DNA of 32,000 bases from Nostoc punctiforme PCC 73102 (GCF_000020025.1 NC_010628.1:4710001-4742000); one strand, 5' to 3'. Counted from the first letter of the stretch, positions 1 through 18,908 are shown. Translations and numbers: made by a program. The notes: generated by a model not told the origin, from the sequence alone.

Positions 1-32
1 TAAAGTAATCTCAATGCCTTAGAAGTTCTCAT

Positions 33-93
33 AAAAAAACGCAAATATACGCATTAAACGCAATTTTTCAGCATTCTCATACGTATATTTGCG
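33..93 (-). terminator. Rho-independent terminator candidate downstream of the TPP-enzyme gene
   Basis: Perfect 12-bp inverted repeat CGCAAATATACG (40-51) / CGTATATTTGCG (82-93) with a 30-nt loop. On the minus strand the hairpin is followed directly by a T7 run (A-run 33-39 on plus). It lies about 25 nt past the stop codon at 118-120. Confidence 0.55.
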
Positions 94-117
94 ATAAAAT
101 AAAAGACAATCGCAGTT

Positions 118-2331: not shown

Positions 2332-2520
2332 GCTGAGTACCTTGTGACGATGAGATGAAACTGTAGATGCTCGTTGAATTTAACAAAAATTTTACATCTT
2401 TCAGGCTGTAACAGTTTATTGCTTTTTTGTACCCTCAGTATAAGTAACTTCAATCAACAGAAATTTATAAGTTGCAGTTAGTTAAAGTAGGAACAAGACA
2501 TAAAGTAACAAAAGAATTTT

Positions 2521-3903
2521 ATGAAATTACCAAAAGGCCCGCAAAGCCCAGCAGTTTTACAGATGCTACGCTGGATTACTAGCCCCATGTCATTTATGGA
2601 AACTTGTGCCAAAAGATATGGGGATATGTTCACCATCAGGTTAGACAGCAAATCTCCGCCACTGATATTTGTCAGTAAACCTGAAGTGCTAGAGCAGATT
2701 TTGACAAACGATATCAAGGGGTTAGAAGCACCTGGTGATACAAATCTGGTGTTTGAATCTTTGCTTGGTAAGCATTCTGTGATTACCATCAGTGGTGCGG
2801 AACACCAACGCCAACGGCAGTTGTTATTGCCACCTTTTCACGGTGAAAGAATGCGAAGCTATAGTCAAATAATTAGTGATATTACCGAGAAAGTCATTAG
2901 CCAATACCAGATAGGGCAACCCTTCAATATCCGGTCTGTTACCCAAGCTATTACCCTGCGAGTGATTATGCAAGCTGTGTTTGGACTAGATGAAGGCCCA
3001 CGCGCCGAAAAATTACAGCATTGTTTGGCTGAAATGCTGGAAAAAGGAAGTTCTGTGTTGAGTGCCGCTTTGCTTTATTTTCCAGCTTTGCAAAGGGATT
3101 TTGGCCCGATTAATTTCTGGGGAAAGCAGATGCGCCGACAGCAGGCAGCTGACAAACTTATATACGAAGAAATTCGAGAACGTCAAGAACAACCAGACCC
3201 ATCACGCACAGATATCCTCAGCTTACTCATGGCAGCTAGGGATGAAGCAGGTCAACCAATGACTGATGAAAAGTTACGCGATGAATTAATGACTCTGTTG
3301 GTCGCAGGCCATGAAACCACAGCAACAGCCTTAGCATGGGCATTTTACTGGATTCAAAAAATACCAACAGTACGCCAAAAGTTACTGAAAGAACTAGATA
3401 GCTTGGGTGATAACCCTGACCCCAGCACCATTTTTAAATTACCCTACCTCAACGCTGTTTGTTCCGAAACTTTGCGAATTTACCCAGTAGCGATGCTGAC
3501 TTTTGCCAGAGTAGTCAGAACTCCTCTATCTTTGGGTGGCTACGAACTTGAACCAGGTATAGGTGTTATTGGTTCAATTTACTTGACCCACCACCGAGAA
3601 GATTTATACCCCGAACCTAAGCAGTTTAAACCAGAACGCTTTTTAGAACGGCAATTTTCTCCCTATGAATATTTACCTTTTGGGGGTGGTGCAAGGCGCT
3701 GTATTGGTCTAGCATTTGCCCAGTTGGAAATGAAGCTAGCACTCGCCAAAATCCTTTCCACCCGTGAATTAGAACTAGTTGACAATAGTGAAGTACGACC
3801 TAAACGCCGTGGTTTAGTGACAGGCCAAGATCGTCCCATCCAGATGGTTGTCACCAGCCAACGTCAGGTGAAGTTTCCTATCCTACAGACAGCCACTGTT
3901 TGA
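2521..3903 (+). CDS. Cytochrome P450 (CYP110-like cyanobacterial family)
   Basis: 460-aa ORF with the heme-thiolate loop FGGGARRCIGLAFA, I-helix AGHETT, ExxR (ETLR) and PERF motifs. The N-terminus LPKGPQSP...YGDMFT is typical of cyanobacterial CYP110 members. Confidence 0.9.
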   Translation: MKLPKGPQSPAVLQMLRWITSPMSFMETCAKRYGDMFTIRLDSKSPPLIFVSKPEVLEQILTNDIKGLEAPGDTNLVFESLLGKHSVITISGAEHQRQRQLLLPPFHGERMRSYSQIISDITEKVISQYQIGQPFNIRSVTQAITLRVIMQAVFGLDEGPRAEKLQHCLAEMLEKGSSVLSAALLYFPALQRDFGPINFWGKQMRRQQAADKLIYEEIRERQEQPDPSRTDILSLLMAARDEAGQPMTDEKLRDELMTLLVAGHETTATALAWAFYWIQKIPTVRQKLLKELDSLGDNPDPSTIFKLPYLNAVCSETLRIYPVAMLTFARVVRTPLSLGGYELEPGIGVIGSIYLTHHREDLYPEPKQFKPERFLERQFSPYEYLPFGGGARRCIGLAFAQLEMKLALAKILSTRELELVDNSEVRPKRRGLVTGQDRPIQMVVTSQRQVKFPILQTATV

Positions 3904-3985
3904 TGTTGAGGGCTTTGATGGTTGCGTTCAAGGAACCTTCAACTTTCATCTATATATTTAGATAGATTTTCAATGCTTTTAATTA

Positions 3986-4024
3986 ATCCCCCATAGTCCT
4001 CTTTTAAGGAGGTTTATGGGGGAT
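3986..4024 (+). terminator. Stem-loop (terminator or small palindromic repeat) after the first P450
   Basis: Perfect 10-bp arms ATCCCCCATA (3986-3995) / TATGGGGGAT (4015-4024) with an inner CCTC/GAGG pairing, followed by TTTAAT. It lies about 80 nt downstream of the stop at 3903. Confidence 0.45.
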
Positions 4025-4390
4025 TTTAATATATTGCAACTGTAAAAAGAATGAGTTTTAAGACTGAGTACATATAGCAATACCAAATCTTTTAACATCA
4101 CCAAAAGACGTAGTTTTCGTGGATATATCCCACAATAATTAATTAAGCTTCTTCTATAAATACCTCTAAAAATTTGGTAAAAAAATATTATTATCTTTGT
4201 AAAAATTCATGTTAATGCTTTGTAAGCATGATTAACTTAGCGGTAATTAACTCCCGAACATCTCCCCAAAGTATTAAAAATATTTGCTCTAATTCCCTAA
4301 TTAAAAATTAAGCCTAGGAAGGATCTAGGCTTACCTCAAGCTTATTGAATTATTTACAGCTTACTAAAGCCTAAAAGTATCGAATAAATA

Positions 4391-5767
4391 ATGAAAATAC
4401 TTGATAGTCTAACCACACCATCGTTGCTGCAAACTCTGCAATTAATCGCTAAACCCACAAAAACTTTAGAAAATTATGCTACCAAGTATGGTGACATTTT
4501 CACAATGCGGGTAATGGGTTTAAAGTCGCCACCGATAGTATTTTTTAGCCATCCCCAAGCAATTAGTGATTGTTTTGCCGTCCCTGCACACAAGTTAGAT
4601 TTTAAAAAAGCAACACATGTATTTAAACCCTTGTTTGGAGAGAATTCTATTGTATTTAAAGAAGCGCGATCACACCAACAACAACGGCAGTTATTACTAC
4701 CAGCATTTCATGGCGATAATTTAAAGTCTTATGGACAAGCAATTTGCCAAATTGCTGAAGAACTTACACAAAGTTGGACATCAGGTACAAATATTTGTAT
4801 ACACAAATTAATGTCAAAGATCACTTTAGAAATTATCTTACAAGTGGTATTTGGTATTACTCATGGTGTGCGTTACCAACAATTAAAAGAACAATTGAGT
4901 GCTTTATTAGAAGACGTAACTAAACCTTGGTATTCCAGCTTGTTTTTCTTTCCTTCGCTGCAAAAAGATTTAGGCGCATGGAGTCCTTGGGGAATTTTCT
5001 TAAAAAGACGAGAGCAAATTGATAAACTCATCTATGCAGAAATTTCTGAAAGACGTTGGCAAAATGATGCTATGCGTACAGATATTCTCAGTCTGCTGAT
5101 GTCAGCACATGACGTAAATGGGCAACAGATGACAGATGAGGAATTACGCGATCAACTCGTTTCATTATTGCTGTTGGGTTACGAAACTACATCTGGTGTA
5201 TTAGCCTGGATATTTTATTTAATTCACTCTCATCCAGAGGTTAAACATCGGCTAATGCAAGAACTAAGCACCTTGGACAACCTCACGAATCCTGAAGCAA
5301 TTACACAATTACCTTATCTCACTGCCGTCTGTCAAGAAACACTGCGAATTCATCCTATTGCTCTAATTTGCACACCACGAATGCTAAAAGAGCCAGTGGA
5401 AATTATGGGGCATAAATTTACATCAGAAACAGTTTTAGTTCCATGTATTCATTTAGCACATCGCCGAACAGACACTTACCCAGAACCAGAACAGTTTCGT
5501 CCAGAAAGATTCCTCAACCAAAAATTTTCACCTTACGAATATTTACCCTTTGGTGGAGGTTATCGCGGTTGCATTGGTGCAGCATTTTCTATGTATGAAC
5601 TGAAATTAGTAACAGCCATAATATTATCCCGTTTTGAATTAAGCCTTACTGATAAACGTCCAGCATATCCAGTCCGTCGTGGTATTACAATTGTCCCTAG
5701 CGGCGGTGTAAAAATGGTTGTTACTAAAAAGGCAAAATTTAAAAGACAAACAATACTTTCTACTTGA
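4391..5767 (+). CDS. Cytochrome P450, paralog of 2521-3903
   Basis: 458-aa ORF with Cys-loop FGGGYRGCIGAAFS, I-helix LGYETTS, ETLR and PERF. It is colinear with the upstream P450 along its whole length (e.g. YGD.FT, HQ.QRQLLLP.FHG, RTDILSLLM, MTDEELRD). Confidence 0.9.
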   Translation: MKILDSLTTPSLLQTLQLIAKPTKTLENYATKYGDIFTMRVMGLKSPPIVFFSHPQAISDCFAVPAHKLDFKKATHVFKPLFGENSIVFKEARSHQQQRQLLLPAFHGDNLKSYGQAICQIAEELTQSWTSGTNICIHKLMSKITLEIILQVVFGITHGVRYQQLKEQLSALLEDVTKPWYSSLFFFPSLQKDLGAWSPWGIFLKRREQIDKLIYAEISERRWQNDAMRTDILSLLMSAHDVNGQQMTDEELRDQLVSLLLLGYETTSGVLAWIFYLIHSHPEVKHRLMQELSTLDNLTNPEAITQLPYLTAVCQETLRIHPIALICTPRMLKEPVEIMGHKFTSETVLVPCIHLAHRRTDTYPEPEQFRPERFLNQKFSPYEYLPFGGGYRGCIGAAFSMYELKLVTAIILSRFELSLTDKRPAYPVRRGITIVPSGGVKMVVTKKAKFKRQTILST

Positions 5768-5869
5768 TTACTCAATCTTCCGATTTGCATATACCTAAAT
5801 ACAGATCCGCTCTTTAGCATATAGCCTTTACAGTAAATAGTAAGAGGACATTTAGGAGATTACTAATCC

Positions 5870-6628
5870 ATGCCTGATGAGCATCGGTTGGAGGAAAAAT
5901 TTTTATCCCAGGAAGCTGAAAGAAGAGTATCTGAAAAGCTAGATGAAGTAGAAAAAATAGAAATAGATGTACAAACCGATCTGTTTAAAATAGTTCAGGG
6001 ACAGGCGGATGGAGTTTCGGTTGCAGGACAAGGATTAACGATCGAAAAAGATATTCGCGTACAAGAAATAAAACTGCAAACAGAAAGTATTACCATTAAT
6101 CCCTTAAGCGCCCTTTTTGGCCAAATAGAACTTAACGATCCAGTAAATGCCATTGCTCGTATTATACTCACAGAAGTAGATATGAACCGCACCTTGGCAT
6201 CAGACTTTGTTCGCAGCAAGATGCAAGATTTTGATTTGGATGTAGATGGCAGAATTGTAAGTTTTGAAGCACAAAAAATTGAAATATTTTTACCTGGTGA
6301 TGGCAAAATAGAATGTAGGGGAAGAGTACTGTTAAAGGAAAAGGGAAATACTCGCCCTTTGGCTTACACTGCGATCGCACGTCCACGCACTCATTCACAA
6401 CCCGCGATGCTGGAGAGTTTTAACTGCACTGAGGGCGGGGGAATTTCCATAGAAGTAGTTACAGCTTTAATGCAGAAAGCAAAAGAGTTGATGAATATAC
6501 CATATTTTAAATGGAAAGATATGGTGTTTCATATTAAAGATATAAAAGTGGAAACTGGTAGTTTAATACTGATGGTAGAAACTCAAGTGAGGCAAATACC
6601 ATCATCGTCAAATTTTTCATCTACTTAG
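5870..6628 (+). CDS. DUF2993 / LmeA-like (putative lipid-binding) protein
   Basis: 252-aa ORF preceded by TAGGAGA. The sequence pattern (IEIDVQTD..K..QG.ADGVSVAGQGL...D.RVQE..LQT..I.INPLSA.FG.IEL..P) matches my recollection of cyanobacterial DUF2993 proteins. No search was run. Confidence 0.5.
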   Translation: MPDEHRLEEKFLSQEAERRVSEKLDEVEKIEIDVQTDLFKIVQGQADGVSVAGQGLTIEKDIRVQEIKLQTESITINPLSALFGQIELNDPVNAIARIILTEVDMNRTLASDFVRSKMQDFDLDVDGRIVSFEAQKIEIFLPGDGKIECRGRVLLKEKGNTRPLAYTAIARPRTHSQPAMLESFNCTEGGGISIEVVTALMQKAKELMNIPYFKWKDMVFHIKDIKVETGSLILMVETQVRQIPSSSNFSST

Positions 6629-6732
6629 TAGAATTAACCTTAATTAAAGATAATTTTTGTTACTGAAGGATGATGTAAAAGTAATAAAATGTTTCTACTA
6701 TTTAGAAAGCTACTTATTTCTAAATTCCAACT

Positions 6733-8427
6733 ATGCAAGAGTATGATGTTGTGCTGATCGGTGCTGGACACAATGGGTTAGTTTGTGCGGCTTACTTGTT
6801 GAAAGCTGGTTATAGCGTCCTGTTACTGGAAAAGCGCTCTGTTCCAGGTGGTGCAGCAACAACTGAAGAATGTTTACCGCAAGAGGCTCCTGGATTTAAA
6901 TTTAACTTGTGCGCTATTGACCATGAGTTTATTCACTTGGGGCCAGTTGTTGAAGAATTAGAATTAGAAAAATACGGCTTGCATTATTTGGAGTGCGATC
7001 CAGTTGTTTTCTGTCCTCATCCTGATGGCAAGTATTTCTTAGGGCATAAGTCGCTAGAAAAAACTTGTGCAGAAATTGCTCGTTATAATGAACGTGATGC
7101 CAAAAAATACGCAGAATTTGTAGATTATTGGCAACGAGCAATCGGTGCAATGATTCCGATGTTTAATGCACCGCCAAAGTCAATTATAGATATTGTTGGC
7201 AACTACGATATCAAAAAATTCAAAGATTTATTTTCGGTTATTGGTTCGCCAAACAAAACGCTGGACTTTATTCGCACTATGTTAACCAGCGCCGAGGATT
7301 TACTTAACGAGTGGTTTGATGAAGAATTTCTAAAAGCGCCACTAGCAAGGCTAGCATCAGAACTTGGTGCGCCACCATCGCAAAAAACCCTTGCCATTGG
7401 TGCAATTATGATGGCGATGCGTCATAACCCTGGCATGGCCAGACCTCGCGGCGGAACTGGCGCATTAGTGCAAGCTTTGGTGAATTTAGTCACAAGTAAA
7501 GGTGGCGTTATTCTTACAGATCAGCATGTTGAAAAAGTTTTAATTGATGATGGTAAAGCTGTTGGCGTGCGGGTTGCTGGTGGTAAAGAATATCGCGCCA
7601 AATATGGGGTTATTTCTAATATTGATGCCAAGCGGTTGTTCTTACAAATGACTGATAAAAGTGATGTTGATGGAGCCGACCCAGATTTATGGGAAAGGTT
7701 AGAACGCCGCATTGTTAACAATAACGAAACCATCCTTAAGATAGACTTAGCTTTAGACGAACCACTGCATTTTCCACACCACGCTCACAAAGATGAATAT
7801 CTCGTTGGTTCTATCTTGATTGCCGATTCTGTGGCTCATGTAGAACAGGCTCATAGTAAATGTACTTTGGGAGAGATTCCTGATGCTGACCCATCAATGT
7901 ATGTGGTGATGCCTAGCTACTTAGACCCTACATTAGCACCACCAGGTAAGCACACTGTATGGATTGAGTATTTTGCCCCTTATCAAATTGCCGGTGCAGA
8001 AGGTACTGGTTTAAAAGGTACTGGCTGGACAGATGAGTTGAAAAATAAAGTTGCAGATAGAGTGGTTGATAAGTTGGCAGACTATGCACCAAATGTCAAA
8101 AATGCAACTATCGCTCGTCGTGTTGAAAGTCCAGCAGAACTAGGAGAAAGATTAGGTGCTTACAAAGGAAATTATTACCATGTTGACATGACTTTAGATC
8201 AGATGATATTTTTCCGTCCATTACCAGAAATAGCAAACTACAAAACGCCAATTGATAATCTATTTTTGACTGGTGCTGGTACTCATCCAGGTGGTTCGAT
8301 TTCGGGAATGCCGGGACGCAATTGTGCCCGCGCCTTTTTACAGGCAAAACATCCTATTAGCCAAACCTTAAAGGATGCAAGAGATTCGATTAAGTCAACT
8401 GTCGAGTCAGTCTTTGGAATTAATTAG
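6733..8427 (+). CDS. crtO: CrtI-family FAD-dependent carotenoid ketolase (CrtO-type beta-carotene ketolase)
   Basis: 564-aa ORF. It has the N-terminal dinucleotide fold YDVVLIGAGHNGLVCAAYL..G..V.LLEKR..PGGAATTEE. It also has long conserved blocks recalled from Synechocystis CrtO (FNAPP, LDFIRTM, LNEWFD, KAPLARL, GAPPSQK, RRVESPAELGERLG, LTGAGTHPGGSISGMPGRNCA). Confidence 0.75.
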   Translation: MQEYDVVLIGAGHNGLVCAAYLLKAGYSVLLLEKRSVPGGAATTEECLPQEAPGFKFNLCAIDHEFIHLGPVVEELELEKYGLHYLECDPVVFCPHPDGKYFLGHKSLEKTCAEIARYNERDAKKYAEFVDYWQRAIGAMIPMFNAPPKSIIDIVGNYDIKKFKDLFSVIGSPNKTLDFIRTMLTSAEDLLNEWFDEEFLKAPLARLASELGAPPSQKTLAIGAIMMAMRHNPGMARPRGGTGALVQALVNLVTSKGGVILTDQHVEKVLIDDGKAVGVRVAGGKEYRAKYGVISNIDAKRLFLQMTDKSDVDGADPDLWERLERRIVNNNETILKIDLALDEPLHFPHHAHKDEYLVGSILIADSVAHVEQAHSKCTLGEIPDADPSMYVVMPSYLDPTLAPPGKHTVWIEYFAPYQIAGAEGTGLKGTGWTDELKNKVADRVVDKLADYAPNVKNATIARRVESPAELGERLGAYKGNYYHVDMTLDQMIFFRPLPEIANYKTPIDNLFLTGAGTHPGGSISGMPGRNCARAFLQAKHPISQTLKDARDSIKSTVESVFGIN

Positions 8428-9966: not shown

Positions 9967-10044
9967 TATTTGATCGCCACCACTCAGTGTAGAATATAAG
10001 CCTGCGGCAGCAAGGATTTTTTCTTGAGCGGTTTACGATTAGAC

Positions 10045-10917
10045 ATGAAAAAATTGTTAATCACCGGAGCAAGTGGTTTTTTAGGATGGCATCTTTGCCA
10101 GCTTGCAAAACCAGAATGGGAGATTTATGGCACTTATTTATCCCATCCTTTAGAGATTCCTGGCATTAAAACGTTAAAAGCAAACTTAACAAATTTCCAG
10201 GAATTAAAACGCATATTTAATGATGTTAAACCAGAAGCAGTTATTCATACTGCTGCCCATTCGCAACCAAATTTTTGTCAAACAAACCCCAAAGAATCGC
10301 ACGCAATTAACGTTATCGCATCATGCAATATTGCCGGACTTTGCGCGGATAATTCTATTCCTTGTGCTTTTACTTCAACCGACTTAGTTTTTGATGGCTT
10401 AAATGCTCCCTATCAAGAAATAGATGCCGTGTGTCCTGTCAACCTTTACGGTGAGCAGAAAGCGATCGCAGAAGCAGGTATGCTAGAAAGATATCCTCTG
10501 ACAGCAGTGTGTCGAATGCCCTTGATGTTTGGTGCAGCAACACCGACAGCAAAAAGCTTTATTCAGCCATTTATTCAAACTTTACAAGCAGAAAAAGAAC
10601 TAAATTTATTTATAGATGAATTTCGCACACCAGTAAGTGGAACAACTGCCGCTAAAGGACTTTTATTAGCATTAGAAAAAGTTAACGGCATCATTCACTT
10701 AGGTGGCAAAGAGCGGCTTTCGCGTTATGATTTTGGAAAAATATTAGTTGAGGTATTTCAACTCCCCACTACCAAGCTCAAATCTTGCCGACAAGAAGAT
10801 GTGAAAATGGCAGCACCTAGACCAGCAGATGTTTCTTTGGATAGTTCCAAAGCTTTTGCATTGGGGTATCAGCCTTTATCTTTAAAAGAAGAATTGCAGA
10901 ATTTAATCAATAGTTAA
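10045..10917 (+). CDS. NAD(P)-dependent SDR, RmlD-like (dTDP-4-dehydrorhamnose reductase family) sugar reductase/epimerase
   Basis: The Rossmann motif LITGASGFLGWHL sits directly after the ATG at 10045. The ORF track's TTG at 10024 is less likely to be the start. The catalytic YxxxK is present (YGEQK). The stop codon overlaps the stop of the convergent NTPase gene (TTAA at 10914-10917). Confidence 0.75.
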   Translation: MKKLLITGASGFLGWHLCQLAKPEWEIYGTYLSHPLEIPGIKTLKANLTNFQELKRIFNDVKPEAVIHTAAHSQPNFCQTNPKESHAINVIASCNIAGLCADNSIPCAFTSTDLVFDGLNAPYQEIDAVCPVNLYGEQKAIAEAGMLERYPLTAVCRMPLMFGAATPTAKSFIQPFIQTLQAEKELNLFIDEFRTPVSGTTAAKGLLLALEKVNGIIHLGGKERLSRYDFGKILVEVFQLPTTKLKSCRQEDVKMAAPRPADVSLDSSKAFALGYQPLSLKEELQNLINS

Positions 10918-12036
10918 TCATCAGGTTGTATTTGTTGTGTACCTAACCAATGACGGAAGCTGGAATGATAGAGACTATAATAAGTTTCTCCGTCAATTTG
11001 TTCTTGGTGTAAGAATTCAAGCCAACTTTCTAGAACTTCCTCAACTTCATATTCATCAGTATCAATGATTTCTGCAATTGCTTCTACTGAGATTGCTTTT
11101 TGCTGCTGAATTAGGACATTTAACACATCTGTGCTATGTTCCGTCCCTTGTTTGGGTGGAATCATTTGGTGTAAATGCTGCTGATAATATGCTTCTAAAG
11201 CAGGCGGGAGTTCATTGTACTGAAAAGGTTCCGCACTTATTATCTGACTGACATACATAAAATTATTCTCGCTCAAAGTGGTGATGCGATCGCAGAAATT
11301 TTCCTCATTAATCTGGTGATTACTCAACCAAGATTTAATATCCCCCCTTGTTAAGGGGGGTTGGGGGGATCTCTTCAACGCTTAGGTAACTTTGAATATA
11401 AGCTTGAATATCCCGCCGATTTTCTTCTGGATAATCTGCCAAATCCAGACTTTGCGATGGCGTTTCAATTAATAAACCCGACTTCTCCCGCAAAAAAGGT
11501 CTACGAGTGAGGAGAAAATAGACCCTATCGGGGAGATAGCGGGGGAGATAAAACAGATTTGTCCCAGGTGGTTGGCTATTGCGGTCAATGCAATTCAACC
11601 CATCAATGGCAATTATCAGTTTTTGATGAGGTTCTAACTCATCGCTGATTTGCTGGAGAAGACTAGAGAAAAACCAACTTCCCTCTGTGGCGTTATCTGG
11701 GAGGGAGGCGTAACTAAGCGAGTATTGATTAATTAGTTGCGTGCAGATATTTATGAGAAATTCGTCACCCCGATTTTTACCCTCAAGTTCGGCATTGTAA
11801 TAAATCACGTGAGGATTATCTGCCACATATTTGGCAAGGATGGCACTTTTACCGCTACCGGGTGCGCCAATGATGGTGAAATAACCGTGGCGATGGCGGT
11901 GGAGAAAGTTGTTAATAGCCGTGAAGACAAATTCACGACCGACAAAGTTGTGGCTTTTTTGTTGAATGATTTCCTCAAACTCCCTTGGATGTCCTCTGGA
12001 ATTGATTGCAGTGGGTGGTTTGGGTGATGAGTTCAT
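10914..12036 (-). pseudogene. NACHT-like STAND NTPase (paralog A), split into two ORFs by a 31-nt palindromic insertion
   Basis: The upstream ORF (11335-12036) carries Walker A GAPGSGKSA, Walker B LIIAIDGLN and FLLTRRP. The downstream ORF (10914-11378) is in another frame and continues the homology to the 507-aa paralog (SENNFMY, EWLEFL..Q.IDGE.YYSLYHSSF). Deleting 11340-11370 fuses them into a 363-aa ORF. Confidence 0.8.
11340..11370. repeat. 31-nt palindromic small dispersed repeat inserted in the NTPase gene
   Basis: The sequence is ATCCCCCCTTGTTAAGGGGGGTTGGGGGGAT. It has nested hairpins (CCCCCCTT/AAGGGGGG and ATCCCCCC/GGGGGGAT). Its length is 1 mod 3, which is exactly the frame offset between the two ORF halves. 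Confidence 0.75.
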
Positions 12037-12081
12037 AATTCTGAGGAATAATTAAAAGATAAGGCAAGGCTGGGGGTAGTC

Positions 12082-12645
12082 ATGACTGTGCAGTTATTAA
12101 GACGGAAGTTCACAGTTGAGCAATTTCATAAAATGATTGAGTCGGGGATTCTGTCAGAAGATGACCGGGTGGAATTGATTCGGGGAGAGATTATAGAGAT
12201 GTCGCCTATTGGGACAAAACACGCTGCTTGTGTCAATCGACTGATTAATTTGTTGATGCAGTTGTTGGGAAAGCGCGTCATACTTGCTGCTCAAAATCCA
12301 ATTGCATTGAACAATAACTCAGAACCTCAGCCAGATGTAGCATTACTCAAACCCCGTGATGACTTTTATGAAACCGCACACCCCCAACCCCAGGATATTT
12401 TTTTACTAATTGAAGTAGCTGATTCGACTGTCATGTATGACCGGGAAGAGAAAATTCCTTTATATGCCCAAGCAAACATAATTGAAGTTTGGTTAGTAGA
12501 TATTAACGAGCAAATTGTCGAAGTTTATCAACAGCCAACAGCTGCAAGATATCAGTTTATGCAAAAGTTTGCTAGCGGTCAAACTTTATCAATTCCAGCC
12601 TTCCTCGACGTGAATATTACCGTCAAGGAAATCTTTGGCAGATAA
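12082..12645 (+). CDS. Uma2-family (DUF820) putative restriction-endonuclease-like protein
   Basis: 187-aa ORF with the typical Uma2 N-terminus (FTVEQFHKMIESGIL.EDDRVELIRGEIIEMSPIG.KHA) and the later E-V-L/VD core (LLIEVADST..YDREEK.PLYA...I.E.WLVD). Its start is only 45 bp from the divergent NTPase A start. Confidence 0.85.
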   Translation: MTVQLLRRKFTVEQFHKMIESGILSEDDRVELIRGEIIEMSPIGTKHAACVNRLINLLMQLLGKRVILAAQNPIALNNNSEPQPDVALLKPRDDFYETAHPQPQDIFLLIEVADSTVMYDREEKIPLYAQANIIEVWLVDINEQIVEVYQQPTAARYQFMQKFASGQTLSIPAFLDVNITVKEIFGR

Positions 12646-12659
12646 CATTATTTCTCCCC

Positions 12660-13888
12660 TCATCCCTCTCTCATCCCTTCAAGGCGCAAAAAATGTACCC
12701 TACCTGATTGTTCCCCTGCGACAATTGTCATGCCATCTGGTGCAACAGCGCAGCAATTGATAGGATATTCCCCCGTGAAAGTGGTAATAACCTTTCCAGT
12801 TAAAAAATTCCAGACTTTCAGGGTGTTGTCATCGGAGGCAGAAATCACCTGTTGCCCATTGGGGGTGACGGCGACGGCTTTTACCCAGTCACTATGACCA
12901 TTGAGGGTGAATTGTTCCTCCCCTGTTGCCAGATTCCAGACTTTCAGGGTGTTGTCAGAGGAAGCAGAAATCACCTGTTGCCCATTGGGGGTGACGGCGA
13001 CGGCTTTTACCGAGTCACTATGACCATTGAGGGTGAATTGTTCCTCCCCTGTTGCCAGATTCCAGACTTTCAGGGTGTTGTCATCGGAGGCAGAAATCAC
13101 CTGTTGCCCATTGGGGGTGACGGCGACGGCTTTTACCCAGTCACTATGACCATTGAGGGTGAATTGTTCCTCCCCTGTTGCCAGATTCCAGACTTTCAGG
13201 GTGTTGTCAGAGGAAGCAGAAATCACCTGTTGCCCATTGGGGGTGACGGCGACGGCTTTTACCCAGTCACTATGACCATTGAGGGTGAATTGTTCCTCCC
13301 CTGTTGCCAGATTCCAGACTTTCAGGGTGTTGTCAGAGGAAGCAGAAATCACCTGTTGCCCATTGGGGGTGACGGCGACGGCTTTTACCGAGTCACTATG
13401 ACCATTGAGGGTGCGGAGTAAGCGTCCTCCTGCTGGAGTTAAACTACGGGTTAAGGGACACAGCCAAGGGGTAGTTTTCCCTTGCTTTATTTTGCCAATA
13501 ATGCCTGAATTTCCTCTGGCATTTTCTCATGTAGTAACCGTCCGTGCAATTGACTCGCTAATTGCTGCTTATCTATTACTAAAATATGTGCTGATAGTCT
13601 CAATACTCCTTGAATTAATTTGAGACTTTTAACTTTTTCAGAGTTATATTCTGGATAATTTAATGTCTCTACATCATCAATTAAATCATAATCTTCAATT
13701 AGCGACTGCACCCCCAATTCAGGATAGTTAATCTTGTCAGTGATGAATTTAAAATCAGTCAGAGTTGCATAATACTTCTCTAAATTTTCTGATTTGACCA
13801 GATTATAAGGATATCTATCTAGACGAGCTTTTTGGGAATAGGATTTTTTTGCTTTTGATTTTTTATGAGTCTTCATCATCTTCCTCAT
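12660..13888 (-). pseudogene. STAND linker domain plus six-blade WD40 beta-propeller, interrupted by a -1 frameshift at 13487-13493
   Basis: ORF 13487-13888 encodes the helical linker typical of cyanobacterial NACHT-WD40 proteins (YYATLTDFKFI...LKLIQGVLRLSAHIL...QLASQLHGRLL). The -1 frame continues without a start codon as IKQGKTTPWLCPLTRSLTPAGGRLLRTLNGHSD and then WD40 blades ending in GRVHFLRLEG. One extra A in the A4 run would give a 409-aa protein. Confidence 0.7.
12808..13413. repeat. 126-bp tandem repeat array (about 4.8 units) encoding WD40 blades
   Basis: Units start at 12842, 12968, 13094, 13220 and 13346. The units at 12842, 13094 and 13220 are identical base for base. The others differ only at one codon (TGG/TCG) and one codon cluster (GCT TCT / GCC GAT). 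Confidence 0.95.
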
Positions 13889-13921
13889 TCTCCCGTTCCC
13901 AGTAATCTACAATACGTTGAT

Positions 13922-15445
13922 TCACTTTTTAAGTAGCTTACGCTTTGTATTCAGAACTGGTTTAGATTTGAGAAAGTCTAGAAAACTAGCATGGTATATG
14001 CTGTAACAATTGTCTCCATCGATTGTCTGCTCCTTCAAATACTCAACCCACTCATCTAAAACTAATTGCACATCATATTCCTCCTGTTTAGCAATATCTG
14101 CTATCATCTTCCACGTAATTGGTGTGCCAATCTCCACTAAAATAAACAGGATAAATACTTTTACTTCTTGGGGCTTTACATCCATTCTCATCCGTACCCA
14201 ATGAACTTGATAATAGTCCTGAAGACCATCGGGTAATTGCGTTAAATTTAGGTCTTGATAGTCACCTTTAGCAATTCCTGGCAAAACATAGCGCAGGTAC
14301 ATGAAATTATTTTCGCTCTTAGTTGCTACCTGCTCAACAAAATCATTATCATCAATATTGCGGTCTTTAATCCATTGTCTAAGTGCCTTCTTATGGTCTT
14401 CATCGACATTCAAAAATAACCCAATATACTTTTTGATATCTTCACGGCTCAAATTAACATAGTCATTTGCCCTTAAATCTAGCTCCTCCATCGGGACATC
14501 TGGTGCAGACAAGCGTTTTTTATCTATAGTATATGGTCGTCTAGTCAGCAGAAAATAGACACGTTCCGGTAGCGCCGTTGGTAAATCTAAAAGATTTCCC
14601 CCAGCTTCTTGCTCCACTTCATCCAAAGCATCAACTACAATTACCAGACTTTCACTAACAGGAATTCTCTTACTAACTTGTTCTAGTAAATCAGCTAAAT
14701 TAGCCTTCTCGACATTCTGCAACTGGTAACGCTTACTTAATTGCTTGCGAATACTTTCAAGAAATAGCTCCGCTCGATTGCTACTAGTTTGGCGAATATT
14801 AAAATAGCATGGTGATTTATTATCCCAAACGTATTTAGCAGCAATAGTACTCTTCCCCATCCCCGCATCACCCGCTACTGTAAAATAACCACTGCGATTT
14901 TTATTGCAAAATTGCTTAAATGCGTCAAAAACAAACTGACGACCACAAAACGAGCGAATTTTTTCTCTAATTAACGACTTAAATTCTGTTGGATACTCAT
15001 CTAAATTCCATTCAGGGAAAGGCTCAAACTCTATTGATTTACTTCTTTTAGCAACCTGAATAAATATTTCCCCAAATTCCTCCAACTGCGATCGCAGTTC
15101 AATTTTCATCAATCGGATATCATATTCTGAATCCGTTCCCTGCAAAAACTTTTCTACTTTCTTGTAGAAACCCAAAGGATTATTTGAAGTATAAGCACTC
15201 CAAAAAGCATTTTTAATTTCTCTTTCTCGAAAAAGATTCAGCAGTACTTCCTGCTTATCCACACCATACTCAATTAAAGAATAAACATAAACACCATCAA
15301 CATCTTTAGGTGGTTGTACTGGGTCAAAATTGAATTGTTTTAAGGTTCTAACTACAGTTTCATTGCGTTGAGCTTGATTAATAACTAGAGAAGCCTCAGG
15401 TTTAGCAATACTTTTAAGTGCATTAACTACAGGGTCAATATTCAT
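13922..15445 (-). CDS. NACHT-like STAND NTPase (paralog B) with an N-terminal domain of about 175 aa and unknown function
   Basis: 507-aa ORF with Walker A GDAGMGKST, Walker B LVIVVDALDEVE, FLLTRRP, and a C-terminal winged-helix-like end (EWVEYL..QTIDG..CYSIYHASFLDFL). It is colinear with paralog A from FCGRQFVF onward. Confidence 0.8.
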   Translation of the reverse strand: MNIDPVVNALKSIAKPEASLVINQAQRNETVVRTLKQFNFDPVQPPKDVDGVYVYSLIEYGVDKQEVLLNLFREREIKNAFWSAYTSNNPLGFYKKVEKFLQGTDSEYDIRLMKIELRSQLEEFGEIFIQVAKRSKSIEFEPFPEWNLDEYPTEFKSLIREKIRSFCGRQFVFDAFKQFCNKNRSGYFTVAGDAGMGKSTIAAKYVWDNKSPCYFNIRQTSSNRAELFLESIRKQLSKRYQLQNVEKANLADLLEQVSKRIPVSESLVIVVDALDEVEQEAGGNLLDLPTALPERVYFLLTRRPYTIDKKRLSAPDVPMEELDLRANDYVNLSREDIKKYIGLFLNVDEDHKKALRQWIKDRNIDDNDFVEQVATKSENNFMYLRYVLPGIAKGDYQDLNLTQLPDGLQDYYQVHWVRMRMDVKPQEVKVFILFILVEIGTPITWKMIADIAKQEEYDVQLVLDEWVEYLKEQTIDGDNCYSIYHASFLDFLKSKPVLNTKRKLLKK

Positions 15446-15627
15446 CTTCGCTAGCAGTAGAGATAATTTTTACACCTGTAACATATCCTAACGACAGATG
15501 ACAAAATTAAGCAAAGATATACTTGTATAATAGCGATACCTTTGGTAAGCTGCGCTAACCCTCCCTCTTCTCTCTTCCTCTGCGTCCTCTGCGCCTCTGC
15601 GGTTCGATTTTCACACTCATTGCCAAA

Positions 15628-15685
15628 GCGCGTAGGCATAACCCTTCGTAGACATTGCCTAGCTATTTCGAGTTCCAAAGCTCAA
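15628..15685 (-). repeat. Dispersed Nostoc-type repeat (copy A), homologous to 23696-23752
   Basis: The reverse complement reads TTGAGCTTTGGAACTCGAAATAGCTAGGCAATGTCTACGAAGGGTTATGCCTACGCGC. It aligns by eye at roughly three quarters of positions with TTGAGTTTGGATCTCAAAAGGGCTAGGCAATATCTATGACGAGCTACGCCTACGCTC at 23696-23752. Confidence 0.7.
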
Positions 15686-15750
15686 CTTTGACCTTTTGAG
15701 GCTCAACTTTGACCTTCTGAGGCTCAACGTTGACCTTCTGAGGCTCAACT
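15677..15750. repeat. 21-bp tandem repeat, about 3.5 copies (GAGGCTCAACTTTGACCTTCT)
   Basis: Copies lie at 15677, 15698 and 15719, with a partial copy at 15740, and carry 1-4 substitutions each. The array sits between the gcvP terminator and the NTPase B start. Confidence 0.9.
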
Positions 15751-15900
15751 ATAAATCAATACGGTTCACTTAAGGGCTACTGGCAAAAATTTTGGGTTTT
15801 TGAGACGCGATAAATCGCCGTCTCTACAAGTGTTTTGGTCTTATCTGAACTGTATTGAACTATAAATATTTCTATCTTACGCAGAGAGAGAGTTTATTCT

Positions 15901-15941
15901 AAAAAAATCCCCCCAACTTTCTGTAAACGAGAGTTGGGGGG
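15901..15941 (-). terminator. Rho-independent terminator of gcvP
   Basis: Perfect 10-bp inverted repeat CCCCCCAACT (15909-15918) / AGTTGGGGGG (15932-15941) with a 13-nt loop. On the minus strand it is followed by a T7 run (A-run 15901-15907). It lies about 28 nt after the gcvP stop. Confidence 0.8.
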
Positions 15942-15968
15942 AGCAAGCTTTAACTAAACTGTATGGTT

Positions 15969-18908
15969 TTATGAGGAATAAGCATCCATTGGCAGACATG
16001 AGCAAACAAAATTCCGATCGCCAAAAGCTGCATCAATGCGACCGACAGCAGGCCAGAATTTATACTCACGAGTCCAAGGTGCAGGATAGGCAGCTTGTTC
16101 ACGAGAATAGGGATGCTGCCATTCTCCGGTGATGAGACTTTCGGCAGTGTGGGGTGCGTTCTTCAAAACATTATCTTGAGCATCCACCTTGCCAACTTCT
16201 ATTTCGGCAATTTCTTGGCGAATAGCAATCAACGCATCACAGAAACGATCCAACTCTTGCTTAGATTCACTTTCTGTAGGTTCCACCATGATTGTACCCC
16301 CTACAGGCCAGGAGACAGTCGGCGCATGGAAACCATAATCCATGAGACGCTTGGCGACATCATCGATTTCGATCGCAGCTGATTTTTTGAGCGATCGCAA
16401 ATCTAAAATACATTCATGGGCAACTAGACCATTTTTCCCCTGATACAAAACCGGATAGTACGATTCTAGTTTTTTCGCAATGTAGTTAGCGTTGAGAATC
16501 GCCACTTTAGTAGCTTGGGTTAAACCATCTGCACCCATCATGGCGATGTACATCCAAGAAATCACCAAGATACTTGCACTACCCCAAGGCGCAGCCGCCA
16601 CAGCACCAATATGTGAGTGCTGAGTTGAGTCGTTGATAGTAACAACAGGATGTCCGGGTAGAAAAGGCACAAGATGAGAGGCTACCCCAATGGGCCCCAT
16701 ACCAGGGCCACCGCCACCATGAGGAATACAGAAGGTTTTGTGCAAGTTTAAATGGCAGACATCCGCGCCAATATCTCCAGGACGGCAAATTCCCACTTGG
16801 GCATTCATATTTGCCCCATCCATGTAAACTTGTCCGCCATGACTATGGACAACAGCGCAGATTTCCTGAATTGGTTCCTCAAACACACCGTGAGTTGAGG
16901 GATATGTCACCATTAAGGCGGCGAGTTCATGGCTGTGTTTTTCTGCCTTTGCCTTCAAGTCATCAACGTCAATATTACCTTGTGAGTCACAGGCAACTGC
17001 CACCACCTTCATCCCACACATTACCGCACTTGCTGGGTTTGTCCCGTGTGCCGAGGTAGGAATCAAACAAACATTGCGGTGTGCTTCACCCCGATTTTCG
17101 TGATATTGACGAATTACTAAAAGTCCAGCATATTCACCCTGAGAACCAGCATTTGGTTGCAGAGAAATTCCGGCAAACCCGGTAATTTCAGCTAACCATG
17201 CCTCAAGTTGCTGGAATAGGATTTGATAACCCTGAGTTTGCGACGCAGGGGCAAATGGATGAATCTTGCCAAATTCTTCCCAAGTTACCGGAATCATTTC
17301 AGCAGTTGCATTCAACTTCATTGTGCAAGAACCCAAAGGAATCATCGATGTCGTTAGCGACAAGTCCTTGCTTTCCAGCTTGTGCAGATAACGCAACAAC
17401 TCAGTTTCTGAGTGATAACGGTTAAATACAGGATGGGTAAGATAGTTACTGGTGCGGGCAAAGGTTGAGTTTTGTAGAGATGATTTGCGCCGTGCTGCAA
17501 TTAAGTCTCCAATTTCTTTAAAACCGAACAATAGACTATCAGGTGCTGCAAAAATCTCGAAAAGCTCTATTAAATCATCTGCTGTAGTTGTTTCATCTAC
17601 AGAGATACCAACGGCAGTGTCATCAAAAATCCGCAGGTTAATATTCCGTGCTTGACAAGCTTCGAGAATTACCTCTAGGCTGCGTGTTCCCAATTCTACT
17701 CGCAGTGTATCAAAGAAATGTTCAGAACTAATTTTGTAACCCAGATGCTTTAGTCCTGCTGCCAACATTAAAGTTAGCTGGTGGATATTCTCCGCAATTT
17801 GCTTAAGTCCATCTGGCCCATGATAGACGGCGTACATACTCGCCATTACCGCCAGTAGCACCTGTGCAGTACAAATATTACTAGTAGCTTTCTCGCGGCG
17901 GATGTGCTGTTCGCGGGTTTGCAACGCAAGACGTAATGCAGGCTTACCTTGAGCATCTTTTGATACTCCTACAATTCGCCCTGGAACCAGCCGCTTATAC
18001 TCTTCCTTCGTAGCAAAGTATGCCGCATGAGGTCCCCCAAACCCCAACGGAATACCGAAACGCTGGGTGCTGCCCACAGCAATATCAGCGCCAAATTCCC
18101 CAGGAGGGGTGAGCAAAGTTAAACTTAAAGGATCTGCTGCTACCGTCACCAATGCACCCTTAGCATGGGCTTTTTCTATAAAAGCGCGGTAGTCGTAAAT
18201 GGTGCCATCACTTGCAGGGTATTGCAAAACAGCCCCAAAAATTGCTCGATCAAAATCAAATGTTTGATGATCGCCGACAATGATATTAATCCCTAATGGT
18301 TTAGCACGTGTTTGTAACACGTCAATAGTTTGGGGATGGCAGTCATGAGAGACAAAATAGGCATTTGCCTGATTTTTGGAGACACCATAGCTTAGACTCA
18401 TTGCTTCAGCTGCGGCTGTGGCTTCATCTAGTAACGAAGCATTGGCGATTTCCAAACCTGTAAGATCAATAATCAGGGTTTGGAAATTTAGTAGCGCTTC
18501 CAGTCGTCCTTGGGCAATTTCTGGTTGATAAGGAGTGTAAGCAGTATACCAACCTGGATTTTCTAAGATGTTACGCCCAATTACAAGCGGGGTAATAGTG
18601 TCGTAATATCCCATACCGATATATGAGCGGAAAACCTGATTTTTAGCAGCAATTTTTTTTAAGGATGCCAGTGCTGCATACTCACTTTCGGCTTCTGGTA
18701 ACTTTAGCGGTTGCTTCAGGCGGATTGTCTGGGGAACTGTTTTGTCAATTAGGGCATCCAGGCTGGGAAATCCCAAAACCTTAAGCATTTGCTGGATGTC
18801 GTCGGAGTTAGGGCCAATGTGTCTTGGCGCAAAACTACTTAATTTTTGACTTTTTTGATTCAGCACTTGCTGCTCATTCGATTTGAGAATAGGGGCGTTC
18901 AATACCAC
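15969..18908 (-). CDS. gcvP: Glycine dehydrogenase (decarboxylating), glycine cleavage system P protein
   Basis: 979-aa ORF (GTG start in the track) with unmistakable GcvP blocks ([25 protein letters not shown](A)[28 protein letters not shown](V)SWPV). It lies in an operon with gcvT and gcvH. Confidence 0.95.

Follow-up and report, generated by a model that had tools for sequence, protein, structure and literature searches.

A probable split three-gene NLR-like cassette conserved across cyanobacteria, with a decayed copy in Nostoc punctiforme

NLR (nucleotide-binding, leucine-rich repeat)-like proteins of bacteria have so far been treated as single-chain receptors. They include the bacterial NACHT (bNACHT) proteins, for which NNH (NACHT N-terminal helical) domains have been defined, with NNH5 listed only in fused clade-11 architectures, and bacterial NACHT genes are only rarely found in operons, which are poorly conserved (Kibby et al., bioRxiv 10.1101/2022.07.19.500537). 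Here we analyze a 32,000-nt stretch of the chromosome of Nostoc punctiforme ATCC 29133 / PCC 73102 (NC_010628.1:4710001-4742000), which is referred to as the window. As the original prediction states, two paralogous NACHT-type nucleoside triphosphatases (NTPases), a helical-linker/WD40 region and a Uma2 gene on the opposite strand are present at positions 10914-15445. The genes are termed G1 (NNH5-NACHT-winged helix), G2 (linker and WD40) and G3 (NTPase of the paralog A type). This locus is very probably the decayed N. punctiforme copy of a split three-gene NLR-like cassette that is conserved in cyanobacteria and is common, and as a rule intact, among the filamentous ones. The cassette resembles the bNACHT proteins in that G1 contains the Walker A and B motifs of NACHT proteins, a winged helix and an N-terminal NNH5 domain, in that the sensor is a WD40 beta-propeller, in that the repertoire of exchangeable N-terminal domains is common to both (TIR, caspase/CHAT, trypsin, HEPN, PNP and EADs), and in its enrichment in multicellular cyanobacteria. 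However, bNACHT proteins are single polypeptides, whereas the cassette has a separate, translationally coupled sensor gene and a third gene that encodes only a nucleotide-binding oligomerization domain (NOD). G1 also differs from the bNACHT proteins of clade 11 (NNH5+NA-iREase1+NACHT+Pentapeptide+beta-propeller) in having no NA-iREase1 domain between NNH5 and NACHT.

A scan of one genome per species gives 80 loci, which together with the loci fetched earlier make 82 non-duplicate loci. The cassette is spread over about 80 loci in more than 15 cyanobacterial genera. G1, G2 and G3 are colinear at 58 of the 82 loci, that is, at 58 of the 62 informative ones; at the uninformative loci the contig ends in or just after the G2 repeats (19 loci) or at the end of G1 (one locus). 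The exceptions among the informative loci are three that have G2 without G3 and one that has neither G2 nor G3. Typically, G1 encodes about 521 aa, G2 encodes the linker and a hypervariable WD40 propeller of 7 to more than 14 blades, and G3 encodes about 400 aa. The same position in Nostoc sp. CCY 9925 / UHCC 0302 is occupied by gcvT-gcvH-gcvP, G1 (521 aa), G2 (743/756 aa), Uma2 on the opposite strand, G3 (403/410 aa) and an epimerase gene. In Scytonema hofmannii PCC 7110, G1 (524 aa), G2 (547 aa) and G3 (394 aa) are located in an unrelated context, and Uma2 is absent.

The distance from the G1 stop to the G2 start is 0-10 nt at 42 of 80 loci, typically in the form of TGAnATG, and the two genes overlap by 4-17 nt at 10 of 80 loci; the remainder carry insertions. 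Of the 27 cassettes without Uma2, 19 have their G3 start at a distance of -17 to +4 nt from the G2 stop. The stop and restart between G1 and G2 are conserved across genera at G1 identities of 52-100%. G1 and G2 are fused at no intact locus examined, the sole ORF (open reading frame) that spans them being the deletion remnant L037, and the canonical architecture of an effector, a NOD and a sensor in one polypeptide is not what is found, as G1 and G2 are separate ORFs at all loci except L037. Because each of G1, G2 and G3 is an ORF of its own across loci, mostly with a 1-nt spacer or an overlap to the next, the split between the NTPase and the sensor appears to be native to the family and not a result of decay. 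The original prediction offered a decaying cluster or a split system as alternatives. The split holds for the family, with its colinear genes, unfused G1 and G2 and tight junctions, and the decay holds for the N. punctiforme copy, which contains 1-bp deletions. Relatives that have a single intact fused NTPase-linker-WD40 gene at this position, which had been named as the finding that would make the locus plain pseudogenes, are not seen in the synteny comparison.

Some junctions are altered in individual genomes. At L037, in a Scytonema genome, a 642-aa ORF (9989-12152) joins G1 to the last WD40 blades. At this locus and at L036 of another Scytonema genome (14244-14537), only a C-terminal remnant of G3 is left; the cassettes of these two genomes are decayed in a way other than that of N. 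punctiforme. Insertions of about 150-170 nt at the junctions of L032 (about 11560-11730) and L051 (about 11560-11650) are flanked by the duplicated junction sequence GGCGTGAAATGGGA, and look like MITE (miniature inverted-repeat transposable element)-type insertions with target-site duplication that uncouple G1 from G2.

The genes and gene fragments of the window copy are as follows.

15445-13922, minus strand: G1 (NTPase B), 507 aa, ACC82138.1 / B2J426, with GDAGMGKST, DALDE and FLLTRRP.
About 15035-15439, minus strand: NNH5 domain of G1.
About 14846-14872, minus strand: Walker A motif GDAGMGKST of G1.
About 14618-14632, minus strand: Walker B motif DALDE of G1.
13924-13922, minus strand: premature TGA stop codon of G1.
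13888-13487, minus strand: 5' fragment of G2, HD2 (second helical domain)-like helical linker, 133 aa, ending with TAA at 13489-13487.
About 13526 to 12660, minus strand: 3' fragment of G2, open WD40 frame with the PWLCPLTRSLTPAGG junction motif and six blades.
12082-12645, plus strand: Uma2 gene, intact, 187 aa, ACC82137.1 / B2J425.
12037-12081, no strand: divergent spacer between the Uma2 and G3 starts, 45 nt.
12036-11335, minus strand: 5' fragment of G3, 233 aa, WP_234710953.1, with GAPGSGKSA, DGLN and FLLTRRP.
11378-10914, minus strand: 3' fragment of G3, helical lid and winged helix, 154 aa, in a shifted frame.

Uma2 is convergent with G2 and divergent from G3, with 14 bp between the WD40 stop and Uma2 and 45 bp between the Uma2 and G3 starts. 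The 3' fragment of G3 overlaps the stop of the convergent epimerase gene, and the gcvP neighbour is ACC82139.1. The ORFs, motifs and both gaps are located where the original prediction placed them. Its gene parts likewise exist, but a frameshift divides paralog A itself in two, and the linker and the WD40 region belong to one gene broken by a 1-bp deletion.

G1 matches NNH5 (PF22736, 'NACHT N-terminal helical domain 5') of Pfam, the source of all domain profiles given below for G1, G2 and G3, at residues 3-137 with E=7e-46 and 155.9 bits. Its N-terminal domain, which had been described as uncharacterised, is therefore a named family. After NNH5, G1 matches NPHP3_N, NACHT and AAA_16 and a TANC1-type lid. 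The score for NPHP3_N is 35.6 bits against a cutoff of 24.8, by which G1 belongs to the NACHT clan. The score for the NACHT profile itself is borderline (25.9 bits, cutoff 26.7), and that for NB-ARC lies below the threshold (E=0.015, 15 bits, cutoff 23.5). The signature of NACHT proteins consists of Walker A GxxxxGK[ST] and Walker B hhhhD[GAS]hDE (Kibby et al., bioRxiv 10.1101/2022.07.19.500537). G1 fits this signature, and its GDAGMGK[ST] and DALDE motifs are invariant in 76 of 76 orthologs. Nearly all of the 120 best-matching homologs of G1 are stand-alone proteins of 517-537 aa with 55-91% identity, from Nostoc, Calothrix, Scytonema, Coleofasciculus, Okeania, Kamptonema and other genera. 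The AlphaFold2 model of G1 has a pLDDT (predicted local distance difference test) of 84 and is predicted to have the NOD fold, in which a nucleotide-binding domain (NBD), helical domain 1 (HD1) and a winged-helix domain (WHD) follow each other, the last consisting of a C-terminal helix and a beta-hairpin winged helix. When this model is compared with the PDB by Foldseek, the Sr35 and NRC resistosomes, Apaf-1, Dark, CED-4 and ORC/Cdc6 are matched with E values of 1e-7 to 1e-4, and the Foldseek probability is 1.00 for Sr35, NRC, Apaf-1, CED-4 and ORC/Cdc6. The sequence profile of G1 finds no solved relative in the PDB. The NNH5 domain alone is predicted to be a nine-helix bundle (pLDDT 83).

The 133-aa linker of G2 matches APAF1_C weakly and below the cutoff (E=0.0011, 19.3 bits, cutoff 22.8). 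It aligns with E=1e-13 to residues 542-643 of P0196, a fused NACHT-WD40 protein of 1226 aa, and these residues are located between the winged helix and the WD40 repeats of that protein. G1 and G2 together are colinear with such rare fused relatives, as judged from this alignment, and the pair therefore represents a split version of the fused layout. All 105 linker homologs start with the linker, and none of them contains an NTPase domain. The WD40 frame matches the WD40 profile with E=1e-56. At the DNA level it is a 126-bp tandem array of 4.8 copies with 97% identity that spans 12807-13413 (Tandem Repeats Finder). The number of blades is six in the N. punctiforme window as compared with about 14 in L001, and the intact orthologous G2 proteins consist of 743-756 aa.

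At 97% DNA identity, the WD40 copies of the window are distinguished essentially by two codons, GHSD[S/W]V and A[S/D]DN. Such a pattern of high internal conservation would be expected from concerted evolution, with the variation at presumed ligand-facing positions. At L050, L076, L078, L081 and L086, two tandem G2 genes are located behind a single G1 and before or around a single G3, and these genes may be alternative sensors that share one NOD-effector protein.

G3 is about 35% identical to the NOD of G1 and has neither an effector domain nor a sensor. In the window, its 5' fragment is NACHT-like (AAA_16, E=8e-9), and its 3' fragment contains a TANC1-type winged helix (HTH_TANC1, E=3e-4) and is colinear with the C-terminal half of G3 in L001 and L003, where the gene is intact. 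Intact G3 orthologs consist of 360-460 aa. The window copy of G3 has the Walker A motif GAPGSGKSA and, as Walker B, IDGLN, in which the acidic pair is missing. Among the 52 intact orthologs, Walker A is kept and Walker B is DGLNC, DGCDR or DALDA. The second acidic residue of D[GAS]hDE is missing in 52 of 52, and both are missing in the Nostoc clade, so that G3 lacks the acidic pair of the NACHT Walker B motif. We infer that G3 probably binds nucleotide but hydrolyses it poorly, and that it may be a structural or regulatory NOD partner.

A palindromic mini-insert, CCCCCCAACCCCCCTT...AAGGGGGG, is present within the G3 coding sequence in the window (11340-11380, minus strand), in L001 (about 13100-13200) and in L003 (about 13140-13230). 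Its length varies among close relatives, where it is translated in frame, and the frameshift of the window copy is located inside it. The insert has the look of a small dispersed repeat that has invaded an ORF.

An exhaustive profile-free search recovers 3,347 relatives of the clade. Most of the 150 best-scoring representatives have the NACHT and winged-helix core at the C-terminal end, and the N-terminal regions ahead of this core are of very different lengths. The N-terminal domains that Pfam recognises in 83 sensor-less proteins are NNH5 (7), TIR_2 (7), TIR (4), CHAT (7), trypsin (4), protein kinase (2), PNP phosphorylase (2) and Swt1-type HEPN (2), and EAD4, EAD7, EAD10, caspase, SMEK_N and HTH also occur among them. 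G2 follows a CHAT-NACHT gene at L085 and L086, the latter of which additionally contains a G3-like gene, and follows a CbiA/EAD10-NACHT gene at L089. At L090 and L100, an HTH-NACHT gene is followed by G2, Uma2 and G3. The exchangeable N-termini of G1 represent the effector-swapping pattern typical of conflict systems, with the sensor in trans, and the swappable N-terminus of G1 is predicted to be the effector slot.

The original prediction regarded the adjacent Uma2 nuclease as an effector that might act in trans. The protein belongs to the Uma2 family (PF05685), with E=4e-36, 124.5 bits against a cutoff of 27 and a match over profile positions 1-171 of 172. It also matches the PADLOC candidate PDC-S03 (E=1.6e-19), and 9y1l and 6okh are solved Uma2 relatives. 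The PD..EVxDS..K motifs of the PD-(D/E)xK fold, from which a nuclease is predicted, are kept in 25 orthologs. In 21 cassettes, G2 and G3 have a Uma2 ortholog (67-93% identity) between them on the opposite strand. Only Uma2 fragments are left in five further cassettes, in which G1-G3 are intact; Uma2 is located directly after G3 in three cassettes and is lacking in 29 complete cassettes. Uma2 is therefore found in or beside about half of the complete cassettes. The cassettes with Uma2 are scattered in the tree of G1, where they include members of the Nostoc clade, L044 and, as deep branches, L061, L063, L064/65 and L074, and they occupy at least five different flanking contexts. The G2 and Uma2 stops are 2-41 nt apart at most loci, and the spacer between the Uma2 and G3 starts is exactly 45 nt at 13 of 20 loci, including L061 of Calothrix brevissima. 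A reverse search of metagenome contigs gives six close Uma2 relatives within cassettes, including HTH-NACHT variants, and at least eight close Uma2 orthologs with adequate flanks that are located among housekeeping genes without a cassette. L093 (5989-11298) contains an 80%-identical Uma2 gene and no cassette between HisF/RuvB/pentapeptide genes and gcvT-gcvH-gcvP, and these very housekeeping genes adjoin the cassette in other genomes. Because Uma2 is present at the cassette flanks without the cassette at L093, it seems to be a resident of the neighbourhood that survives the loss or absence of the cassette.

Of the explanations that compete with the split three-gene cassette, the one in which the system has Uma2 as a working fourth component, acting in trans as a nuclease effector or as a regulator, survives best, and it is improbable. 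The recurrence of the gene between G2 and G3 in several genera and flanking contexts, the tight and conserved spacings, the metagenome relatives within cassettes, the conserved catalytic motifs and the match to a defence candidate are all consistent with such a role. They are opposed by the complete cassettes that lack Uma2 or retain only fragments of it, by the close orthologs in housekeeping settings such as L093, and by the location of the variable effector position of the family at the N-terminus of G1, and a compact block inherited vertically as a whole could account for much of the linkage. The linkage between Uma2 and the cassette is above chance, but facultative in both directions. Because it is facultative, and because the effector position is the N-terminus of G1, Uma2 is taken here to be an accessory gene or a passenger rather than the effector. 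The proposal of an effector in trans is unsupported, as the gene is absent from about half of the cassettes, is decayed in five that are otherwise intact, and has orthologs in unrelated housekeeping contexts.

Lesions of the window copy were mapped by DNA alignment to the intact syntenic orthologs of Nostoc CCY 9925 and UHCC 0302. Relative to these orthologs, the window copy contains three 1-bp deletions, which are strain-specific.

13863-13931, minus strand: lesion 1 (G1 tail), 1-bp deletion between 13931 and 13930, CTT-AAAAAG as compared with TTTCAAGAG in the orthologs.
13487-13496, minus strand: lesion 2 (G2), C deleted between 13493 and 13492, GGCA-AAATAA as compared with GGCACAAATCAAG.
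11340-11380, minus strand: lesion 3 (G3), frameshift in the palindromic CCCCCCAACCCCCCTT..AAGGGGGG (C6AAC6TT..G6) mini-insert.

Lesion 1 leads to the premature TGA, by which the conserved C-terminal helix of G1 is lost and the tail is put out of frame. When the base is restored, translation of the shifted frame gives the tail KVNQRIVDYWERENEEDDEDS*, which would overlap the G2 start; a tail of this type is also found in L090, L100 and P0125 (HTH- and CHAT-NACHT cassettes). Lesion 2 leads to an immediate TAA and leaves the WD40 part out of frame and untranslatable. Lesion 3 splits G3 into the 233-aa and 154-aa ORFs. All three genes are intact and tightly coupled in the orthologous loci L001 and L003, but not in the window copy. 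Among the relatives, disrupted genes amount to about 6 of 82 for G1, about 4 of 58 for G3 and at least 4 of 57 for G2. Because lesions are the exception among the relatives, the window copy appears to be an unusually decayed member of an otherwise maintained family. The only full ORFs left are those of the truncated G1 and Uma2, and the system is therefore most probably non-functional in N. punctiforme.

The restored G1 tail (13863-13931) and the first approximately 30 codons of G2 (13800-13888) are very unlike those of the closest NNH5 orthologs. They resemble the HTH-NACHT and CHAT-NACHT type of cassette (…NQRIVDYWERE..EDD…), which suggests that recombination between paralogous cassettes may have occurred at the G1-G2 junction in N. 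punctiforme.

It is very unlikely that the five separate ORFs of N. punctiforme constitute a working multi-subunit system. The ORFs of G1 and Uma2 are intact, the sequences persist across many sequencing runs of the strain, and a slippery A_AAA_TAA is present at the frameshift site of G2, as would suit such a system. However, the closest orthologs at the same position have a single intact G2 and a single intact G3, the breaks are 1-bp deletions inside conserved domains, and the slippery sequence is not conserved, the relatives having CAAATC instead. In addition, the WD40 frame has no start codon ahead of the GTG at 13352, which is itself located within blade 1 when translated, and six blades would make a non-canonical propeller. 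Recoding at the G1-G2 junction or at A_AAA_TAA in G2 is ruled out: the geometry of the junction varies (a 1-nt spacer, overlaps of -4 to -17 nt, a same-frame gap of 9 nt and inserts of 100-500 nt), and the relatives are uninterrupted at the G2 site.

That the locus is a pseudogenised single-polypeptide NLR (NTPase-linker-WD40) with an unrelated Uma2 gene is scarcely credible. Rare fused relatives do exist (P0196, P0229 and P0230, at about 38-44% identity), and clade 11 contains a fused NNH5+NA-iREase1+NACHT+beta-propeller protein (Kibby et al., bioRxiv 10.1101/2022.07.19.500537). However, the loci examined include no intact fusion of G1 with G2 and keep the stop and restart across genera, all 105 linker homologs begin at the linker, and most of the 150 best-scoring clade representatives end right after the winged helix.

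Sequencing or assembly artefacts in a strain with an intact cassette are just as hard to credit as the source of the frameshifts and the short WD40 array, since, although all three indels adjoin short homopolymer runs and assemblers tend to collapse near-identical repeats such as those of 126 bp, the exact truncated G1 and the 133-aa ORF are recovered in 29 blocks of assemblies of independent sequencing runs, the 133-aa ORF is identical on 63 contigs from independent runs, the 233-aa truncated G3 with its Uma2/epimerase context is recovered in 76 such blocks, and no other gene in the 32-kb window is apparently split; because the same truncated products recur in this way, the indels are real and sequencing error is ruled out as their source, the repeat number alone being left uncovered.

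Several points weigh against the split, NLR-like cassette that is favoured here. None of the system models of PADLOC and NCBIfam is matched. Few of the 129 flank families match PADLOC models, so that a defence-island context gives no support to an immune role. The model of NNH5 has no significant structural neighbour in the PDB. The co-assembly of G1, G2 and G3, the role of G3 and an output through NNH5 are all putative. The truncated G1 could retain some activity alone. Finally, short-read contigs all break inside the WD40 repeats, so that the count of six blades rests on the window sequence.

The mechanism that can be proposed for an intact cassette is tentative and is derived only from gene organisation, domain content and motifs. 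G1 and G2 would be made in matched amounts through translational coupling and would reassemble non-covalently into an Apaf-1-like receptor. Binding of a ligand to the WD40 sensor would release the NTP-dependent oligomerization of the NOD. G3 may co-assemble as a hydrolysis-impaired partner, acting as a nucleator, a helper or a threshold-setter, and the output would be triggered by clustering of the N-terminal domains. It is conceivable, though short of probable, that intact cassettes represent an undescribed heteromeric bacterial NLR, composed of an effector-NACHT protein, an HD2-WD40 sensor in trans and a hydrolysis-impaired NOD-only partner. Such an NLR would be a prokaryotic counterpart of sensor/helper pairs, with exchangeable effectors, in some cases tandem sensors, and a facultative Uma2.

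Several other described systems share parts of this arrangement. The cassette resembles Apaf-1, Dark and CED-4 in the order of NBD-HD1-WHD, an HD2-like helical domain and two WD40 propellers (about 14 blades in the intact G2), in the Foldseek matches of the NOD (E values of 1e-6 to 1e-4) and in the weak APAF1_C match of the linker. It differs from them in that its NTPase belongs to the NACHT clade and not to the AP-ATPases, in that the chain is cut between WHD and HD2, and in that it has no CARD and has an extra NOD-only subunit. The resemblance to Apaf-1 is one of architecture and fold only, the NB-ARC and APAF1_C scores being below the cutoffs. Paired and helper NLRs (NAIP-NLRC4, plant pairs and the NRC network) are similar in that two NOD paralogs with unequal domains are co-encoded. 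G1 carries the output domain, G3 has no effector or sensor and a degenerate catalytic motif, and the best structural matches of G1 include the NRC2, NRC3 and NRC4 resistosomes. However, each partner of the known pairs is a complete NLR with its own repeats, and these pairs are eukaryotic, so that the relation is one of analogy and not of orthology; hetero-oligomerization of the cassette products is presumed from their co-encoding and coupling.

Chlorophyte APAF1_C/WD40 proteins are thought to be derived from an NB-ARC-WH-APAF1_C-WD40 ancestor, and a partner NTPase encoded elsewhere has been considered for them (PMC8891106). One of them, UM033_0004 of Ulva (PMC8891106), resembles G2 as a stand-alone protein with an APAF1_C-type HD2 and WD40 repeats and without an NTPase. 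No partner NOD was found there, whereas the partner in the cassette is encoded directly upstream, and the coupling is conserved. AVAST/Avs systems also contain a STAND (signal transduction ATPase that has numerous domains) NTPase and follow the logic of sensor and effector, but their clade, sensor type and gene organisation are all distinct from those of the cassette. The match of G1 to Avs1b is partial and confined to the NTPase region, with E=2e-11 in PADLOC and 27.9 bits against a cutoff of 1500 in NCBIfam, far below what membership takes. The profile and PADLOC searches that had been proposed for the locus recover the NACHT clan, WD40 and Uma2, and from PADLOC just the weak Avs1b match and PDC-S03.

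The three-gene layout is not described in the searchable parts of the text of Kibby 2022, Kaur 2020, Kaur 2021 and the 2026 Nature STAND papers, and the literature search finds no paper that mentions the protein accessions. In the original prediction, a split system that uses a nuclease in trans had not been recognised as a described one. Among the NLR-like systems of bacteria, the three-gene architecture seems to be a variant that has not been described.

Most of the genes that flank the cassettes have housekeeping functions (Na/H exchanger-Usp, GDSL lipase, HisF, RuvB, PheT, IF3 and gcvTHP). Beside the cassette of Scytonema hofmannii (L004), a GmrSD-type gene and an NB-ARC/TPR STAND gene with an NCH2 fragment are located at 1-7200, and a Tn7-like tniQ/tniB/transposase module and an integrase gene are located on the other side at 12950-17575. 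This context is mobile and defence-like, unlike the housekeeping flanks in Nostoc. The Rfam scan of the whole window matches no family, and the promoter and terminator scan finds no enrichment over shuffled sequence. A sigma-70-like TTGTCC-16-TATAAT is present at 12190-12217 on the minus strand, within the Uma2 coding sequence, directed at G3 and about 150 nt upstream of the G3 ATG. It is a consensus match only, and would imply that transcription of G3 is antisense to Uma2.

For annotation, these results mean that the boundaries between G1, G2 and G3 are not pseudogene breaks, and that the breaks within G2 and G3 of N. punctiforme are. N. punctiforme ATCC 29133 is genetically tractable and its cassette is naturally broken, so that this strain could be used as a null host for complementation with intact cassettes. 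If the cassette is what it is proposed to be, it would provide a bacterial model for NLR sensors in trans, for the co-assembly of NOD paralogs and for the evolution of sensor and effector exchange.

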